DNA of 64,000 nt from an uncultured bacterium. Lineage in GTDB: Bacteria > Bacillota > Clostridia > Peptostreptococcales > Anaerovoracaceae. The position numbers and the translations under genes were made by a program. This document shows, one piece after another, positions 10,760 to 62,428 of the stretch. Location: positions 315 to 64,314 of the forward strand of contig CAJMLH010000005.1 in assembly GCA_905214195.1 (NCBI GenBank), given 5' to 3'. Positions within the stretch are counted from its first letter, which is position 1. Each line of letters starts with the position of its first letter. Under the pieces are notes generated by a model. It was not told the DNA's origin. It made no database searches and was given only the letters and a program-made list of their open reading frames with translations.

Positions 10760-10952
10760 TTATAATTAAAATATTCCTGGGTTATGCGTTAGGGAATCAT
10801 AATTGAACCTACACTTTTGAATCGGGAATTCGGAGTTTTCAAAGCGTTATGTCAGGCCTCACTATCAGAGGAAGACAGAGGCAAGAAACAGAGTACCCAC
10901 CTATCTTTTGATAGGGCGTCAATTATCTCCCCGACGGTAACCCGGGTATTAA
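10760..10952 (+). promoter_or_regulatory. candidate structured leader / small RNA (unclassified) ending in terminator
   Basis: A 190-nt noncoding stretch with several local hairpins (cctatc-tttt-gatagg; taccc...gggta) and a purine-rich CAGAGG repeat. No RBS-supported ORF. Confidence 0.2.
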
Positions 10953-18603: not shown

Positions 18604-18690
18604 GCCGGCGTGATGGAATTGGCAGACGTGCAGGACTCAAAATCCTGTGGTGGCAACACCGTATGGGTTCGACCCCCATCGCCGGCACCA
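18604..18690 (+). tRNA. tRNA-Leu (anticodon CAA), type II with long variable arm, CCA encoded
   Basis: Acceptor stem GCCGGCG/CGCCGGC, anticodon stem-loop CAGGA-CUCAAAA-UCCUG, variable hairpin TGGTG-GCAA-CACCG, T-loop TTCGACC, 3' ACCA. Confidence 0.9.
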
Positions 18691-53807: not shown

Positions 53808-54996
53808 ATCGGGCGGCAATGAAGAAACGGAACTCAATGTGTTTATGATGAATCCCGATATGTACATGGAGAGCTTTTTATCTTCCTACAGCGGAGAGGA
53901 GGGGCTCGTCACCACTAATGTAGAGATGGGATTGACTAACCCTAATATGGAGGTCGGCGATGTGCTTAAATTGCTGAACACACGGCTCATGAGTGACGAT
54001 GGGCCTGACATCATAGTAATGGACGACATAAATGCTGACGGATACATAGAATCGGGACAGCTTGCGGATCTCAGCGACATAATCAACAAAAGCAACGACC
54101 TTATAAATCCTTTGAAAGAGCAGGACGACGAGATATATTATGTTCCTCTCTCTTTCGGCGTAATAGCAGACTCAAAAAGCACCGGAACTGCGGTGGATTT
54201 TGAAGATATGGAAAAGTATGTATCTTCATTAAAAGCACAAGGCCTTAAGTCGGGAAACTTTGAAAACACTGCGGTTCTCTGGTACAAGACTGAAATAGAG
54301 CCGATAATAAAAGAGGAAAACAACCTGAGCAAAGAAGAACTTACCGGCTTTTACGAAAATGTCAAGGAACTAATGACCGTGACAGAATGGTACGGAAGAA
54401 ACCCGGCAAGGGCTTCTCTGTATCCCGGAACCTTTATGGTAAACCCTCTCATCGAATATTGGGATATATACGCAGATAAGATTGGTGCAGCAAGAAGCTA
54501 TATAACAAATATAAGTGATTTACATCAGCTATATCACGCCAAAAACGAGGGAAAACTGGAATTCAGCTACGGTAAAGCCGATGGCAAGACTGTATATATT
54601 CCTACATGCATAATTGCAGTGAATAACAACAGCAAGAACAAGGATGCCGCTTTTGAAATGGTAGAATACATGTTATCTGAGGAAGGTCAGAAAGATGTGG
54701 CTCAAAACGGTGGTTATCTGCCTGTCAACTATAAGGTTCTCAGAGACGAACTTGAAAACTGTCCGGAAACGAATGTCAGCATAAACGGAGTCGGAGCTGT
54801 TCTCAAACCTTTTGCAGCAAATGACATAGACGAGATTATGGAAGTGATAAAAAATCCGGAGTACGAGGCCTACAGTGACTCTTACCTCATGGAGATAATT
54901 CTCACCGGAGCTGCGGACTACGGCAACGGCGACGAAACTCTTGATTCCGCCGTGGAAAAGGCCATGAACAAGCTGAAAATCTATCTGACGGAATAA
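53737..54996 (+). CDS. ABC transporter substrate-binding lipoprotein (family 1, carbohydrate-type)
   Basis: 419 aa with a lipobox, an SBP_bac_1-like body, and the position typical of a sugar ABC operon. Confidence 0.8.
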   Translation: MKKILTLFMTFILITGLTGCGQDGSGGNEETELNVFMMNPDMYMESFLSSYSGEEGLVTTNVEMGLTNPNMEVGDVLKLLNTRLMSDDGPDIIVMDDINADGYIESGQLADLSDIINKSNDLINPLKEQDDEIYYVPLSFGVIADSKSTGTAVDFEDMEKYVSSLKAQGLKSGNFENTAVLWYKTEIEPIIKEENNLSKEELTGFYENVKELMTVTEWYGRNPARASLYPGTFMVNPLIEYWDIYADKIGAARSYITNISDLHQLYHAKNEGKLEFSYGKADGKTVYIPTCIIAVNNNSKNKDAAFEMVEYMLSEEGQKDVAQNGGYLPVNYKVLRDELENCPETNVSINGVGAVLKPFAANDIDEIMEVIKNPEYEAYSDSYLMEIILTGAADYGNGDETLDSAVEKAMNKLKIYLTE

Positions 54997-55077
54997 AATA
55001 AATATTCCGGCACAACAAAAATTGTGCAAAACAATAATCAACATCACAAAAAAATTGTAAAAATTCACAAAAAACTA

Positions 55078-55106
55078 TTGACAGAGCTGCCAATGAGCAG
55101 TAATAT
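55078..55106 (+). promoter_or_regulatory. sigma-A-like promoter candidate of the leu/ilv operon (TTGACA - 17 nt - TAATAT)
   Basis: Consensus -35 and near-consensus -10, about 40 nt upstream of the leader peptide. Confidence 0.5.
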
Positions 55107-55144
55107 ATGTGTATACAAAATCAAAGGAGAAGAATATCAGTACA

Positions 55145-55210
55145 ATGATGAACATTATTATTATACTCGGTCTAGAAATTATCATCGCAAATAAAATAAT
55201 TCAAAACTGA
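55145..55210 (+). CDS. candidate attenuation leader peptide MMNIIIILGLEIIIANKIIQN (9 Ile + 2 Leu of 21 residues)
   Basis: AAAGGAGAA RBS-like motif 17 nt upstream. The ORF ends 47 nt before a terminator hairpin and 127 nt before leuA. Confidence 0.5.
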   Translation: MMNIIIILGLEIIIANKIIQN

Positions 55211-55257
55211 TATTCTGCCTATAGCCGAGTAAGCAATTTTTATATAGTGTCAAATTA

Positions 55258-55296
55258 GACCTTGCTTCTTATTTCAGGTAGAAGCAGGGTCTTTTT
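55258..55296 (+). terminator. intrinsic terminator / attenuator (gaccttgcttct ... agaagcagggtc + TTTTT) upstream of leuA
   Basis: 12-bp stem with one G-U pair, 10-nt loop and U5. The upstream segment gtaagcaa (55229-55236) can pair with ttgcttct as an alternative anti-terminator. Confidence 0.6.
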
Positions 55297-55336
55297 AATA
55301 CTTAAACAGTTAATGCCAAAAGAAAGGAAATCTAAA

Positions 55337-57064
55337 ATGACAACAGAAATCAAAACCAAAGTTGCAGGTATGAAGAACCACACAAAATACAGTATAGGAT
55401 ACTTCATGCCGCCGACAGAATCCACAGATTGGGTAAAAAAAGACCATATCGACAAAGCTCCTTCATGGTGCAGCGTAGACCTGAGAGACGGAAACCAAGC
55501 ACTCGTTGTACCTATGAGCCTAAACGAAAAACTGGATTTCTTCAAGCTCCTATGCAACATCGGATTCAAGGAAATAGAAGTAGGCTTCCCGGCCGCTTCA
55601 GAAACCGAATATGAATTTCTGAGAAAACTCATAGAAGACGACCTTATACCTGAGGACGTAACCATACAGGTTCTTACTCAGTCAAGAGAACACATAATTC
55701 AAAAGACTTTTGAAGCGGTCAAAGGCGCCCGCAATGTCATAATACACCTTTACAACTCCACCTCTGTAGCTCAAAGACAGCAGGTGTTCAGAAAATCAAA
55801 ACAAGAAATAAAAGATATTGCAGTATTCGGTGCAAAGATGATAGATGAGTACGCAGAAAAAATGTCTGAAACCCACTTTACATTTGAATACTCACCGGAA
55901 AGCTTTACCGGCACGGAAATAGATTATGCCCTTGACATATGCAATGCAGTCATAGATATTTGGAAACCTCGAAAAGAGAGAAAAACCATAATCAATCTTC
56001 CTGCAACTGTATCCATGTCAATGCCTCATGTATACGCTTCCCAGATAGAATTCATGAGCAAGCATCTTAAATACAGAGAAAATGTAATACTTTCCCTTCA
56101 TCCTCACAACGACAGAGGAACAGCCGTTGCAGACTGTGAACTGGGAATTTTGGCAGGCGGAGACAGAATAGAGGGAACTTTGTTCGGCAACGGAGAAAGA
56201 ACAGGAAATGCCGATATAATCACGGTAGCTATGAATCTCTATTCCCATGGAGTAGACCCGGAGCTTGATTTTACCGATATGCCTTATATAGTTAAAAAAT
56301 ACGAAGAGTTTACCGATATGAAAGTTCCTCCAAGACAGCCTTACGGCGGAGAACTGGTATTTGCCGCTTTCTCAGGCTCACATCAGGACGCCATCGCCAA
56401 AGGTATGCACTATAGAGAAGAATTCGAGCCGGATAAATGGAATGTCCCTTATATTCCTATCGACCCGCATGATATCAGCAGAGAGTACGAAGCAGATGTA
56501 ATAAGGATAAACAGCCAGTCAGGCAAGGGCGGAGTCGCTTACATACTTGAAACAAACTACGGTTTCCATATTCCAAACGCCATGAGAGAAGAAATCGGTT
56601 ATATGATGAAACATGTTTCAGATGTAAACCACAAAGAACTTTCACCTGAAAAAATATATGAAATTTTCAGCAGCGAATATGTAAACAGGGCAGACAAATA
56701 TGTTCTTAAAGACGCAACCTTTAAGAGGCTGCCCCAGTCGGAAAGTCTTGGTGATAACGGAATAGAAGCCGATATCGTAACGGTAATAGACGGTAAGACA
56801 TACGCTCTTGCAGGAATCGGTAACGGGCGACTTGACGCAATAACAAACGCGCTCAGAAAAGGTCCTTACAAAATAGAATGTGATTTCGTGACTTATGCCG
56901 AACATGCCCTTGAATCAGAATCTAATTCAAGAGCGGCAGCCTATGTAGCTATATCCGATAAACAAGGTAACACTTACTGGGGAGTGGGCATCCACAACGA
57001 TATAATTTACGCATCGGTCAACGCACTGATGTCTGCCATAAACAGAGCATTTGCAAACAGATAA
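55337..57064 (+). CDS. leuA: 2-isopropylmalate synthase (long form)
   Basis: MTTEIKTK..., [13 protein letters not shown] and [11 protein letters not shown] motifs, and a C-terminal LeuA dimerisation/regulatory domain. Confidence 0.9.
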
Positions 57065-57078
57065 TAAGAGGTACTTAT

Positions 57079-58341
57079 ATGGGAATGACAATGACACAAA
57101 AAATCCTGGCAGACCATGCCGGACTCAAAGAAGTAAAACCGGGCCAGCTTATAGAAGCAAGGCTTGATATGGTTCTTGGGAATGATATAACTTCTCCCGT
57201 AGCCATAAACGAATTTGAGAAAGCAGGATTTGAGCAGGTATTCGATAAATCGAAGATTTCACTGGTTATGGATCACTTTACACCAAACAAGGATATAAAA
57301 GCTGCACAGCAGTGCAAACAAACCAGAACTTTTGCAAGAAAATTCGATATAGATAATTTTTTCGATGTAGGCAACATGGGAATAGAACATGCACTTCTTC
57401 CTGAACTTGGCCTTGTAGCGGCAGGTGAATGTATTATAGGTGCAGATTCTCACACATGTACTTACGGAGCATTGGGGGCATTTTCCACCGGTGTGGGAAG
57501 TACAGATATGGCCGCCGGAATGGCGACCGGAAAAGCATGGTTCAAAGTTCCGCCGGCAATTAAGGTCGAATTAAAAGGTGCGCCGCAAAAATTTGTCTCA
57601 GGAAAAGATGTAATACTTCACCTCATCGGTATGATAGGTGTAGACGGAGCCCTTTACAAATCTCTCGAATTCATGGGTGAGGGCATAAGCCACCTCTCAA
57701 TGGATGACAGACTTTGCATATCCAATATGGCTATAGAAGCCGGCGCCAAAAACGGAATCTTTGTGGTAGACGATATTACAAGAGAATACATGAAAGACAG
57801 AGTAAGCAGAGAATACAAAGTATTTACACCCGACGATGATGCTGAATACGATCAAACTATCGTCATAGATCTTTCAGAACTTAAGCCTACAGTAGCTTTC
57901 CCTCACTTACCTGAAAACACAAGAACAATAGATAAGGTTGGTGATGTGAAAATAGATCAAGTCGTGATAGGCTCATGCACCAACGGACGTCTTGAGGACA
58001 TGGAAGCCGCAGCAGAAGTTCTGAGAGGCAAAAAAGTTGCGCAGGATGTAAGATGTATAATAATACCTGCAACTCAATCAATCTATAAAGAATGTATCAA
58101 AAGAGGGTATATGGATATCTTTATAGACGCAGGCTGCGCCGTATCAACACCGACATGCGGACCTTGCCTCGGCGGATATATGGGTATTCTGGCAGAACAT
58201 GAAAGATGTATAGCAACCACAAATCGTAATTTTATAGGAAGAATGGGACATAACCTTTCAGAGGTATATCTGTCAAATCCTTTCGTAGCGGCAGCCTCTG
58301 CGGTTACAGGCAAAATAACAGATCCTAAGGAGGTAATGTAG
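57079..58341 (+). CDS. leuC: 3-isopropylmalate dehydratase large subunit (short aconitase-family LeuC)
   Basis: 420 aa with Cys ligands (SCTNGR, CGPCLG). Confidence 0.9.
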
Positions 58342-58821
58342 ATGAAAGCTCAAGGAACGGTTTTTAAATACGGAGACAATATCGATACGGATATAATCAT
58401 ACCGGCAAGATATCTAAACACCAGTGACAGCAAGGAGCTTGCGGTACATTGCATGGAACCGGTAGACGAAAACTTTTTCAAAAATGTAAAGGCCGGAGAT
58501 ATCATGGTAGGCGGACTTAATTTCGGATGCGGTTCATCCCGAGAGCATGCACCCATAGCAATTAAAGAATGTGGCATTTCCTGCGTTATAGCCAAATCCT
58601 TTGCCAGAATATTCTACAGAAATGCCATAAACATAGGACTTGCAATAATGGAATGTCCCGATGCGGCAGATGACATAGAAGCGGGAGATAAAGTATCTGT
58701 GGATTTTGAAACGGGAATTATAACAAACATTACTAAAAACAAAGAATACAAGGCCATGCCTTTTCCTGATTTCATAGATAATATAATCAAAAAGGGCGGA
58801 CTGCTCAATTCCATAAAATAA
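58342..58821 (+). CDS. leuD: 3-isopropylmalate dehydratase small subunit
   Basis: 159 aa with a swivel-domain motif ([10 protein letters not shown]). Confidence 0.9.
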
Positions 58822-58840
58822 AAAAGAAAGAGAGATAAAG

Positions 58841-60052
58841 ATGCTTACACTAAAAGCCTTTGAAGAAGCCGTTGAGGTAGTAAAAAAAGTAGCTATAGAA
58901 ACAGAACTTTTGTACAGCAGATTTCTAAGCGAGCAAACAGGAAACAAAGTATATCTGAAACCGGAAAACTTACAGATAACAGGTGCTTACAAACTAAGAG
59001 GAGCTTACTACAAGATAAGCACCCTTACTGAAGAGGAGCGTGCCAAAGGCCTTGTAACAGCCTCTGCCGGAAATCATGCACAAGGAGTCGCATACGCAGC
59101 TAAGGCTTACGGATGCAAGGCAATCATAGTAATGCCGACAACTACTCCTCTCATGAAAGTTGACAGAACCAAGAGCTATGGAGCAGAAGTTGTTCTTCAC
59201 GGAGATGTGTATGATGAGTCAGCGGCATATGCAGCCAAGCTTGCCGAAGAAAAAGGATATACATTTATCCATCCATTTGACGACCCGGCAGTAGCCACAG
59301 GTCAGGGAACAATAGCAATGGAAATTATAAAGGAACTTCCTCTTGTGGATTACATACTGGTTCCGGTCGGCGGCGGCGGACTTGCAACAGGAGTATCCAC
59401 TCTTGCAAAGCTTCTCAATCCAAAAATAAAAGTAATAGGAGTTGAGCCTGCAGGAGCAGCAAGCCTCAAAGCCTCTTTTGAAAAAGGCAAACCTGTAACT
59501 CTAAATCAAATCTCTACTATAGCAGACGGAACAGCAGTAAAAACTCCCGGACAAAAGATTTTCCCTTACCTTCAGCAAGGGCTTGATGATATAATAACTG
59601 TCGAAGACGATGAACTCATAGTATCATTTTTAGACATGGTGGAAAATCATAAACTCATAATAGAAAATTCGGGACTGCTTTCTGTAGCCGCCTTAAAGCA
59701 TCTTGATGTTAAAGACAAAAAAATCGTTTCTATCCTAAGCGGCGGCAATATGGACATAATTACAATGTCATCTGTAGTTCAGCTTGGTCTTATAATGAGA
59801 GACAGAATATTTACAGTTTCTGTACTTCTGCCTGATAAACCGGGAGAACTTGTAAGAGTAGCATCTACCATAGCAAAAGAGCAAGGCAATGTAGTAAAGC
59901 TTGAGCATAACCAGTTTGTAACGACCAACCGCACGGCTGCCGTGGAGTTAAAAATAACTATCGAAGCTTTTGGCAGTGAACATAAGAACAAAATATGTAA
60001 AGCTCTCAAAAACGCAGGCTATGACCCTAAACTGATAAGCGTTATAATGTAG
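58841..60052 (+). CDS. ilvA: threonine ammonia-lyase (biosynthetic-type with C-terminal ACT-like domain)
   Basis: PLP motifs ([14 protein letters not shown]) plus a roughly 80-aa regulatory C-terminal domain. Confidence 0.85.
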
Positions 60053-60077
60053 CCTGATTGAAAGGAGATATATCAGT

Positions 60078-61154
60078 ATGAGTTATAAAATAGCCGTAAT
60101 ACCGGGAGATGGTATCGGCCCTGAAGTTATAAAAGAAGCCGTAAAGGTTTTAGATACAGTCGGTCTGAAGTTCGGTCATGTATTTGAATACGAATATCTT
60201 GCCGCAGGAGGAGATGCTATTGACAAAACAGGCAAATGTCTACCTGAAGAAACCGTAAAATCAGCCAAAGAAGCAGATGCTGTACTGCTTGGAGCAGTGG
60301 GCGGTCCTAAATGGGATAATCTTCCCGGAGACCTGCGTCCCGAAAGAGCACTCTTAGGTCTTAGAAAAGCCTTGGGACTCTTTGCAAATCTCAGACCTGC
60401 AATTATGTTCGATCAGCTTAAAGACGCATGTCCTCTAAAAGAAGAAAAAGTCAGAGGTGGACTTGATATCTTAGTAGTAAGAGAACTTACAGGTGGTATA
60501 TATTTCGGAGAAAAAGGAATAAAAGACAGCGGCGATATGGGCAAATCAGCCTACGATATTGAGGCTTATTCGGAAAAAGAAGTGGAAAGAGTAGCAGAAA
60601 CAGCGTTTTCCATGGCAATGAAAAGGAATAAAAAAGTAACCAGCGTAGACAAGGCAAATGTACTTGAAAGCTCACGACTCTGGAGAAAAACGGTGGCAAA
60701 GGTTACGGAAAAATATCCTGAGGTTACGCTTGAAAACCTTTATGTGGATAATGCATCAATGCAGCTTGTGTATAATCCGAAACAATTCGATGTAATAGTT
60801 ACAAACAATATTTTCGGCGATATCCTTTCAGATGAAGCCAGTATGATAACAGGCTCCATAGGTATGCTGCCGTCTGCAAGTCTTGCCGAGGGGAATTTCG
60901 GAATGTATGAGCCGGTACACGGCTCAGCTCCCGACATTGCAGGAACCGGCAAAGCCAATCCAACAGCCACTGTACTTTCGGTGGCAATGATGTTAAAATA
61001 TACTTTTGGACTTGTAAACGAATCGAATGCTATTGAGAATGCTGTCAAATCAGTCCTTGAAGATGGTTACAGAACGCCCGATATAATGACGAACGGATGC
61101 AAGCAAGTAACAACTTCTGAAATGGGAGATTTATTCGCAGAAAAGCTGAGGTAA
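60078..61154 (+). CDS. leuB: 3-isopropylmalate dehydrogenase
   Basis: 358 aa with IPMDH motifs ([21 protein letters not shown]). Confidence 0.9.
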
Positions 61155-61162
61155 ATTGAAAT

Positions 61163-62428
61163 ATGTATAACTTACTTGAAAATCTTATTATATTTTCCGC
61201 CGGAGAAGGACGAACAATTCTTGATGAAATCGCATCTATATATCGCAAAGCCGAAAATGGTGAAGATGTAACATCAAGAGCATATCAAGCAGTGAGAAGT
61301 ATTCTTAAAACTGCTTCAAAATACGGATTCAGCGGTAATCTGTGGAAAAGTACAGTTGCACTATACATAGCATACAACGAAAACCCTTTTTCACTCTCTG
61401 CGGAAAGAAACGATTCAGTACATGAAAATATATTTGCAAAGCGTGACTGCAATATTCTTTCCGAAATATTCAATTTTGATCTTAGTGAACTTGACAAGGT
61501 ATTAAAAACAGATTGCTTTGAACTTCTTAAAAACTATGAATCAGATGAACCTGTCTCAGATGCGGGAAAAGTAATTAACAAGTTATGCAATCAGTTATCT
61601 TCATCTGAAAATTTCTACGAAGATATATCGCAATTCTATATGGAAAACGGCGTGGGCGTCTTAGGATTAAACAAAGCTTTTTCGGTAGATACAGAGCATG
61701 AGGAACCGTATTTTGTGCCTGTCAGAACACTTTCCCAAATAAAGCTTTCCGACCTTATCGGATATCAGGTGCAAAAGGAAAAGCTTACGGGCAATACTAC
61801 AGCTTTCCTTAAGAAAAAGCCTGCTAACAATGTTCTTTTGTTTGGAGACGGAGGAACCGGCAAAAGCACAAGCATAAGAGCCCTTGCCAATCAGTATTAT
61901 GACGACGGTCTGAGAATAATACAAGTCTACAGACATCAGATGCGATACTTAAACAAGATTATAACTGCTGTAAAAAGAAGAAATTATCGTTTTATTATAT
62001 ATATGGATGACCTTTCCTTTGAAGATTTTGAAACAGAGTACAAATATCTAAAGGCTGTAATAGAAGGAGGCCTTGAACAAAGACCTGAAAATGTGCTGAT
62101 ATATGCTACATCCAACCGAAGACATCTTATCAAAGAAACTTGGAAAGGCAGAGATGATATGGAACATGACGGTGACCTTCACAGGAGTGATTCCATAGAA
62201 GAAAAGCTAAGTCTTGCAGATAGATTCGGCGTACAGATATACTACGGAAAACCTACAAGGGAAGAATTTCATCATATAATTGAAGTTTTAGCTATTCGAG
62301 AAAAAATAATGATCGATTTTGATGTACTGCACAGTGAAGCCAACAAATGGGAAGTACGCCACGGCGGTGTTTCAGGGAGAAGCGCCCGTCAGTTTATCGA
62401 TTATATAAAGGGAACGGAGGAACATTAA
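61163..62428 (+). CDS. AAA+ ATPase of the DUF815/COG2607 family, embedded in the leu/ilv operon
   Basis: 421 aa with Walker A (LLFGDGGTGKST) and Walker B (IIYMDDLSF) motifs and an about 200-aa unrecognised N-terminal region. Confidence 0.7.
   Translation: MYNLLENLIIFSAGEGRTILDEIASIYRKAENGEDVTSRAYQAVRSILKTASKYGFSGNLWKSTVALYIAYNENPFSLSAERNDSVHENIFAKRDCNILSEIFNFDLSELDKVLKTDCFELLKNYESDEPVSDAGKVINKLCNQLSSSENFYEDISQFYMENGVGVLGLNKAFSVDTEHEEPYFVPVRTLSQIKLSDLIGYQVQKEKLTGNTTAFLKKKPANNVLLFGDGGTGKSTSIRALANQYYDDGLRIIQVYRHQMRYLNKIITAVKRRNYRFIIYMDDLSFEDFETEYKYLKAVIEGGLEQRPENVLIYATSNRRHLIKETWKGRDDMEHDGDLHRSDSIEEKLSLADRFGVQIYYGKPTREEFHHIIEVLAIREKIMIDFDVLHSEANKWEVRHGGVSGRSARQFIDYIKGTEEH

Follow-up and report, generated by a model that had tools for sequence, protein, structure and literature searches.

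The leuA operon of the 64-kb window, by which we mean the whole stretch of contig CAJMLH010000005.1 analysed here, is preceded by a leader that most probably acts as a ribosome-mediated (leader-peptide) transcription attenuator. It is predicted to control leuA-leuCD-ilvA-leuB by sensing charged tRNA-Ile and probably tRNA-Leu. Structurally, the leader comprises a short open reading frame (ORF) preceded by a dedicated ribosome-binding site, a cluster of codons for the amino acids that the operon produces, an intrinsic terminator between this ORF and leuA, and an exclusive antiterminator together with an anti-antiterminator that overlaps the regulatory codons from the last Ile codon onwards. The original prediction, which likewise proposed a ribosome-mediated attenuator and not a T-box, is backed by the conservation of the Shine-Dalgarno (SD) sequence and the short ORF, by covariation of the helices, by Leu-only leaders in operons without ilvA and by the lack of a match in Rfam. 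Translation of the ORF, ribosome stalling, the geometry of the ribosome footprint and the kinetic order of folding are what we infer from these features. The leader family is undescribed and absent from Rfam, and the kind of mechanism is already known. The elements of the leader are as follows.

55078-55106, + strand: sigma-70-type promoter, read from the sequence as TTGACA (55078-55083), a 17-nt spacer and TAATAT (55101-55106).
55124-55129, + strand: SD sequence AAGGAG of the leader ORF; its A-A-G-G-A columns are nearly invariant in a 13-sequence alignment.
55131-55141, + strand: arm A, AGAAUAUCAGU, the 5' arm of the outer anti-antiterminator helix, between the SD sequence and the start codon.
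55145-55210, + strand: leader ORF, MMNIIIILGLEIIIANKIIQN, 21 codons and a stop, with ATG at 55145 and the stop UGA at 55208-55210.
55164-55171, + strand: arm B, UACUCGGU, within the ORF and starting in the last Ile codon of the run.
55206-55220, + strand: arm A', ACUGAUAUUCU (55206-55216), with its extension; contains the stop UGA (55208-55210).
55213-55220, + strand: A' extension, UUCUGCCU, the 5' strand of the outer antiterminator helix.
55224-55236, + strand: arm B', GCCGAGUA (55224-55231), with its extension; overlaps GAG-U-AAGCAA (55227-55236), the 5' strand of the inner antiterminator helix.
55257-55296, + strand: intrinsic terminator, with 5' arm 55257-55269, loop 55270-55279, 3' arm 55280-55292 and U5 at 55292-55296.
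55262-55270, + strand: UUGCUUCUU, the 3' strand of the inner antiterminator helix, in the terminator 5' arm.
55276-55283, + strand: AGGUAGAA, the 3' strand of the outer antiterminator helix, in the terminator loop and the top of the 3' arm.

The promoter TTGACA-17-TAATAT at 55078-55106, as originally predicted, is present in the sequence and is also recovered by a consensus promoter scan with 10 of 12 matches. Its -35 element TTGAC stands at the matching position in most of 16 orthologous leaders, with TTGGC in L094. The predicted ORF of 21 codons, preceded by a ribosome-binding site and containing nine Ile codons with a run of four, is present as well. The run reads AUU AUU AUU AUA (55154-55165), and two Leu codons, CUC (55166-55168) and CUA (55172-55174), complete the cluster. 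The in-frame fraction of Ile, Leu and Val amounts to 0.55 versus 0.26 for nucleotide shuffles (P = 0.0018), and the other two frames contain four and one stop codons over the same span. Both leader Leu codons are rare in the genome (CUC 10% and CUA 3% of Leu codons), and seven of the nine Ile positions use the minor codons AUU or AUC, AUA making up 60% of Ile in the long ORFs of the window. Codon usage over these 27 long window ORFs is itself unusual, with this preference for AUA and with CUU and CUA contributing 43% and 3% of Leu codons, respectively.

The arms A and A' form a perfect 11-bp inverted repeat (55131-55141 with 55206-55216) that encloses the whole ORF. The second helix, found by an inverted-repeat search and also selected by RNAalifold, pairs UACUCGG(U) at 55164-55171 with (G)CCGAGUA at 55224-55231. 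Along the RNA the arms are ordered A, B, A', B', so that A:A' and B:B' cross in a pseudoknot-like arrangement; both conserved helices are absent from the original prediction. The terminator had been described there as a 12-bp hairpin with U5 at 55258-55296 and is present at 55257-55296 with arms of 13 nt that are 92% complementary, a 10-nt loop and a folding energy of -20.1 kcal/mol. It is situated 40 nt upstream of the leuA SD sequence. An automatic terminator scan did not flag 55257-55296, as its loop limit is 8 nt.

With the bases covered by a ribosome halted immediately 5' of B masked, and with the RNA ending 5 nt into the terminator 3' arm, a nested two-helix antiterminator is the minimum free energy (MFE) fold in 10 of 12 distinct leaders. 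In the window, this structure reaches -17.0 kcal/mol and is composed of an outer helix (55213-55220 with 55276-55283) and an inner helix (55227-55229 and 55231-55236 with 55262-55270). The inner helix corresponds to the alternative pairing proposed earlier between an upstream gtaagcaa segment and the terminator 5' arm: AAGCAA (55231-55236) pairs with UUGCUU (55262-55267) and GAG (55227-55229) with CUU (55268-55270). That proposal stands for this helix and covers one of the two antiterminator helices. RNA folding, suggested at the time as a check for mutually exclusive structures, thus yields both the terminator and, under footprint masking and transcript truncation, the antiterminator.

On the basis of these structures, we postulate the following mechanism. 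The helices A:A' and B:B' would hold the extensions of A' and B', which are the two antiterminator 5' strands. Without a ribosome, or after its release, both helices would keep these strands sequestered, the terminator would form and transcription would stop at about 55296. A ribosome that has advanced to the stop codon inside A' would itself cover the antiterminator strands, again allowing the terminator to form. In 9 of the 12 leaders, the stop is either past the conserved AUUCUGCC or no more than a few nucleotides 5' of it. Under starvation for Ile-tRNA or Leu-tRNA, the ribosome would stall at 55154-55171, on AUU-AUU-AUU-AUA-CUC (55154-55168), and cover B and the adjacent part of A, with coverage of the 3' half of A expected especially in species with an 18-nt spacing from start codon to B. 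The freed A' extension could then pair with 55276-55283, and the B' extension with 55262-55270, as the terminator 5' arm and loop emerge. Once this antiterminator (about -17 kcal/mol) has formed, the terminator would be precluded and RNA polymerase would read into leuA.

Relatives of the leader were collected by a LeuA-based scan of one genome per species and by further LeuA homologues from the protein database with their contigs. The LeuA scan places the window in an uncultured Clostridiales lineage. L001 (UMGS452) is 99% identical to the window by LeuA; other relatives are CAG:145 and UBA1702-like metagenome-assembled genomes, and one is named Candidatus Fimisoma, a Clostridia genus in Eubacteriales incertae sedis. 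Twelve distinct leaders with LeuA 78-99% identical (the window, L002-L006, L027, L094-L097 and L101) form the comparison set. All twelve retain the promoter, the SD sequence, the short ORF, A/A', B/B' and the terminator, and all share the peptide core I-I-(I/L)-L-G-L directly at arm B. The conservation of the small ORF and its Ile codons, which the original prediction had named as a check, is therefore seen as an in-frame short ORF with an Ile/Leu core in 12 of 12 leaders. The leader peptides listed are MMNVIIILGLELIVSNRIIKN, MQHNILLGLQVIIIMNDNK, MQQVIILGLELIISNKNN, MLHIILLGVVLVI, MMNSIIILLTLIIIINNSNPIFCRKASK, (V)LYIILLGLQIDSLKDNIH, MMNIIILLVLVIIIKSENLKLIFCRETE, (V)LYIILIGLQLDSLKNNMH, MFSIIILGLVLSIISKFDSYKHNLLDASKVN, MFNILLLGLVIIDNNCTSQVFSA and MLAIILLGLNVNIPDKIIEH. 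They are 13 to 31 amino acids long and differ in the C-terminal half and in where the stop falls. Between start codon and B there are 18, 21 or 24 nt, an in-frame spacing in all twelve, so that insertions and deletions near the start codon keep the frame. Averaged over the leaders, the Ile/Leu/Val fraction reaches 0.50 in frame, compared with about 0.26 in shuffles; the two alternative frames give 0.28 and 0.15 and are interrupted by stops in nearly every leader.

At the nucleotide level, AUUCUGCC is almost invariant across the leader family in the 13-sequence alignment, and AUAUUCUGCC is near-invariant. The GG in the terminator loop is invariant and the CUGCC after A' almost invariant, both of which are explained by the outer antiterminator helix. 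A search with nhmmer, using the leader alignment against 103 loci and the window, returned no second copy in the window and no leader motif upstream of 73 more distant LeuA genes (60-68% identity). A pattern and ORF scan of the same 73 loci detected no T-box core motif and no SD-preceded short ORF rich in branched-chain amino acid (BCAA) codons, the detector for the latter recovering 14 of 16 positives. Of the 12 stretches recovered by a metagenome pattern scan, most duplicate the CAG:145 and UBA1702-like species, and the scan contributed little diversity.

The operon downstream of the leader (55337-61154) has the order leuA-leuC-leuD-ilvA-leuB(-DUF815), and its products serve Leu and, via ilvA, Ile synthesis. 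The genes were assigned by Pfam, with NCBIfam support above cut-off where given.

55337-57064, + strand: leuA, long form (NCBIfam NF002991, 791 bits).
57079-58341, + strand: leuC.
58342-58821, + strand: leuD.
58841-60052, + strand: ilvA (NCBIfam TIGR01127, 446 bits).
60078-61154, + strand: leuB (NCBIfam TIGR00169, 522 bits).
61163-62428, directly after leuB: DUF815 AAA-ATPase gene.

Of the operon leuA-leuCD-ilvA-leuB-ilvB described earlier, leuA, leuCD, ilvA and leuB are upheld; the gene taken for ilvB encodes a DUF815 ATPase according to Pfam. L096 likewise has a DUF815 gene after leuB, and in L099 and L100 one is found immediately upstream on the opposite strand, making its linkage to the leu operon recurrent.

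The codons of the leader vary together with the gene content of the operon. Four sister lineages (L098, L099, L100 and L103; LeuA 73-75% identical) display the same layout of promoter, SD sequence, short ORF and terminator in front of leuA-leuC-leuD-leuB operons that are devoid of ilvA. Their leaders are Leu-only, namely MLLLPLLKLDNS..., MLLLLGLELLKL, MLLLLLCLTCDS and MMLLLLGNLLGLYTGTA, with MLLLPLLKL... and MMLLLLGNLLGL... as further spellings. Among the twelve Ile-containing leaders, in contrast, eleven precede operons with ilvA between leuD and leuB, the exception being L096. As the leaders are Leu-only where ilvA is absent, the regulatory codons follow operon content. Read side by side, LLLLGLELL and IIIILGLEII plainly appear to be the same peptide with Leu and Ile exchanged. 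This switch is the strongest single argument that the leader codons are read; a ribosome-independent RNA would have no reason for it.

Covariation was assessed on a MAFFT alignment of 13 rows (A2), in which the 5' ends of L006, L094 and L097 are misaligned, lowering the pairing percentage of A:A'. Beside it, we ran an anchor-based duplex analysis comparing each arm with its own partner and with partners from other species. On A2, the OFF state (A:A', B:B' and terminator) has 87% of cells paired versus 39-47% in slid controls, with 15 pairs changed on both sides; the observed values are reached by 0 of 500 shuffles. B:B' contributes three such pairs at 92% of cells paired, the terminator helix six at 90.5%, and A:A' six. 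Compensatory changes are also visible in the individual A:A' arms, for example CAGU/ACUG, UAAU/AUUA and CGGA/UCCG. In the duplex analysis, cognate partners bind more strongly than non-cognate ones for each helix, and negative-control arm combinations reach only -1 to -3 kcal/mol.

A:A' duplex: cognate -10.5 versus non-cognate -6.6 kcal/mol, p<5e-5.
B:B' duplex: cognate -9.8 versus non-cognate -8.4 kcal/mol, p=0.006.
Terminator duplex: cognate -18.3 versus non-cognate -13.7 kcal/mol, p<5e-5.

The ON state shows a similar picture on A2, with 87.3% of cells paired versus 41-54% in slid controls and with 5 pairs and 12 cells changed on both sides, a cell count reached by 0 of 500 shuffles. A three-way covariation links the B' extension, the terminator 5' arm and the 3' arm (columns 124/163/183), which read G-C-G in five leaders and A-U-A or A-U-G in six. 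Within this alignment, such a pattern is the signature expected of a strand shared by two alternative helices.

Several observations weigh against an attenuator of this design. The gap between SD sequence and ATG is 15 nt in the window, which is long and suboptimal compared to the 9-13 nt of its relatives, and the SD-proximal stretch is arm A itself, so that initiation must compete with folding. Arm A lies only partly within the footprint of a ribosome stalled in the Ile run of the window. Substitutions between the window and L002 ORFs, compared by hand, all change the amino acid, many of them within Ile/Leu/Val, and classical coding-sequence conservation is therefore not demonstrable. The roughly 12 independent leaders are phylogenetically related. 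Taken alone, the outer antiterminator helix is a conserved complementarity with no significant covariation (p=0.27). Furthermore, full-length MFE folds always retain the terminator, even with the footprint masked, so switching must be kinetic, as it is in the E. coli trp attenuator. Lastly, L096 (2759-2933) combines an Ile-rich leader, MFSIIILGLVLS..., with an operon lacking ilvA; here LeuCD and LeuB may also serve the citramalate route to Ile, or ilvA may have been relocated.

The poor SD spacing in the window would also fit a structured RNA that works independently of translation, such as a riboswitch or a protein- or tRNA-binding leader. Its sensor would be the pseudoknot with AUAUUCUGCC, and AU-rich sequence together with the constraints of the helices would have produced the ORF incidentally. 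The helices indeed covary and cross in pseudoknot order, AUUCUGCC and the terminator-loop GG are conserved beyond pairing needs, and the ORF segment UACUCGG is constrained by pairing. However, the alternative antiterminator pairing accounts for the conserved nucleotides, the SD sequence and an in-frame ORF persist in 12 of 12 leaders despite three length classes from start to B, the Ile/Leu/Val enrichment is confined to one frame, Leu-only and Ile-containing peptides follow operon content, and no Rfam family matches. We thus regard a purely structural sensor as improbable. The conserved, hydrophobic and SD-preceded ORF, annotated by a gene caller in its 31-amino-acid version in L096, might alternatively encode a functional small peptide, with the downstream hairpin merely its terminator or a constitutive partial terminator. 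This is very unlikely, given that length (13-31 amino acids), C-terminal half and stop position are not conserved, that conservation is limited to the Ile/Leu core overlapping arm B, that the alternative helices covary with the terminator, which a plain terminator would not need, and that the ORF always immediately precedes leuA and shares its orientation.

A degenerate or atypical T-box leader, sensing tRNA directly, deserves consideration as Firmicutes often place amino-acid genes such as B. subtilis ilv-leu under T-box control (PMC5794164, PMC6123439), and as a terminator/antiterminator pair is present. The T-box family RF00230 is ruled out at the leuA leader by covariance-model searches of the window and 15 relatives. 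At the gathering threshold, Rfam, its Leu/Phe, Leu and other leader models included, assigns no family to the leader in a search of the whole 64-kb window, nor to the leuA leaders of 15 orthologous loci; at E<=10, the region 54950-55400 yields neither a T-box nor a leader-peptide family, its best local matches being unrelated families with E>0.3. This agrees with the original prediction, which saw no T-box features. The same search detects a T-box elsewhere in L100, providing a positive control. The leader is, moreover, only about 170 nt long, and the base 5' of the conserved loop GG varies (A/C/U/G), which is incompatible with the UGGN acceptor-binding bulge of T-boxes. A T-box origin is accordingly so improbable as to be nearly negligible. 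A further thought concerns the crossing helices, AUAUUCUGCC and the loop GG, which could form a pseudoknotted platform that additionally binds a trans factor (protein, tRNA or small molecule). Such a hybrid attenuator, to which we assign a low probability, would integrate translation speed with a second signal.

Read as a translation-sensing attenuator, the leader adds a new family to this class and extends it to uncultured gut Clostridia, a group whose control of amino-acid biosynthesis has hardly been studied. The family may be viewed as a natural experiment in attenuator evolution, with MLLLLGLELL in front of leuACDB versus IIIILGLEIII where ilvA is inserted: single-base changes from Leu to Ile codons seem to have altered which amino acid is sensed, with the RNA switch left in place. 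The split, doubly locked antiterminator that uses the terminator loop is a tidy design variant and may serve annotation tools and synthetic biology. Current understanding of attenuation is not overturned by this family.

Further elements surround the leader and its relatives. Just 5' of the -35 element, the window contains two AT-rich palindromes, TTGTAAAAATTCACAA (55055-55070) and GCACAA-N6-TTGTGC (55010-55027). A TTGT-N8/9-CACAA(AA) motif abutting the -35 element is found in most orthologous promoters, those of the Leu-only leaders included, and may represent a candidate operator of a further transcription factor or an UP-like element; the conserved TTGT-N8-CACAA palindromes suggest that another regulator may be involved. 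Searching the window for the pattern of the promoter-upstream palindrome gave chance-level counts only, and therefore no regulon can be inferred. In L093, which is close to L003, a Y1 (IS200-type) transposase gene (1943-2410) precedes the leu leader promoter by about 360 nt. The T-box leader of L100 (717-958) is located beside the leu operon, upstream of a gene pair encoding an AMP-binding (PaaK-like) and an ACT-domain protein, and a THF riboswitch is found downstream of leuB in L099 (7600-7690). The only gathering-level Rfam matches in the 64-kb window, a 6S RNA (70.7 bits, 10771-10952) and one tRNA (18604-18687), are far from the leader.

Ribosome-mediated attenuation of BCAA genes has experimental support in the S. 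aureus ilvD leader (PMC5794164) and the L. monocytogenes ilv-leu leader (PMC5864092). Predictions of it exist for Streptococcus leuA leaders, with a term-seq figure for that of S. sanguinis (PMC5314783), for the L. lactis leu-ilv leader (cited in PMC5794164) and, as BCAA leader-peptide attenuation, for Corynebacterium; a review considers the mechanism possibly common in Gram-positives (PMC6123439). The earlier view that it would be uncommon for Firmicutes was thus overstated. The window leader shares with these systems an SD-preceded, Ile/Leu-rich ORF 5' of a BCAA operon and mutually exclusive anti-antiterminator, antiterminator and terminator structures in which the regulatory codons overlap the anti-antiterminator. 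The S. aureus ilvD leader peptide, too, has an Ile run, there of three codons, followed by Leu codons. In contrast to the Firmicute attenuators, to which it has no detectable sequence homology at Rfam gathering score or at E<=10, the window leader belongs to an uncultured gut Clostridia host, its operon begins with a long-form leuA and has ilvA embedded, and two crossing helices lock two antiterminator strands, with the terminator loop put to use.

T-box leaders (RF00230) resemble the window leader in placing a terminator/antiterminator switch before Firmicute amino-acid genes. They differ in binding tRNA directly, whereas the window leader is proposed to sense by translation and has no Stem I, specifier loop, T-box sequence or model match. 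The actinobacterial LEU element (PMC1262725) is likewise located upstream of a long (yeast/actinobacterial-type) 2-isopropylmalate synthase gene and has a candidate leader peptide rich in Leu alongside an RNA able to form a pseudoknot. From its description, however, that element appears to act by pairing of the Leu-codon run with the leuA SD sequence, and no terminator is mentioned for it, while the window leader has one; no sequence similarity between the two was detected.

The leuL and ilvL (ilvGMEDA) attenuators of E. coli and Salmonella, although unrelated in sequence, follow the same principle, in that stalling on runs of Leu or Ile/Leu/Val codons decides between terminator and antiterminator (PMC6123439, PMC5314783). 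Their classical 1:2/2:3/3:4 scheme has a single antiterminator helix, whereas in the window the 5' strand is split in two, each part masked by its own helix, and the stop codon lies inside one masking arm. Rare Leu codons in the leader are common to both, CUA being used in E. coli and CUC and CUA in the window. As a whole, what sets the window leader apart is an antiterminator that is split and doubly masked, the involvement of the terminator loop in it, and the apparent rewriting of Leu to Ile codons that is associated with ilvA.

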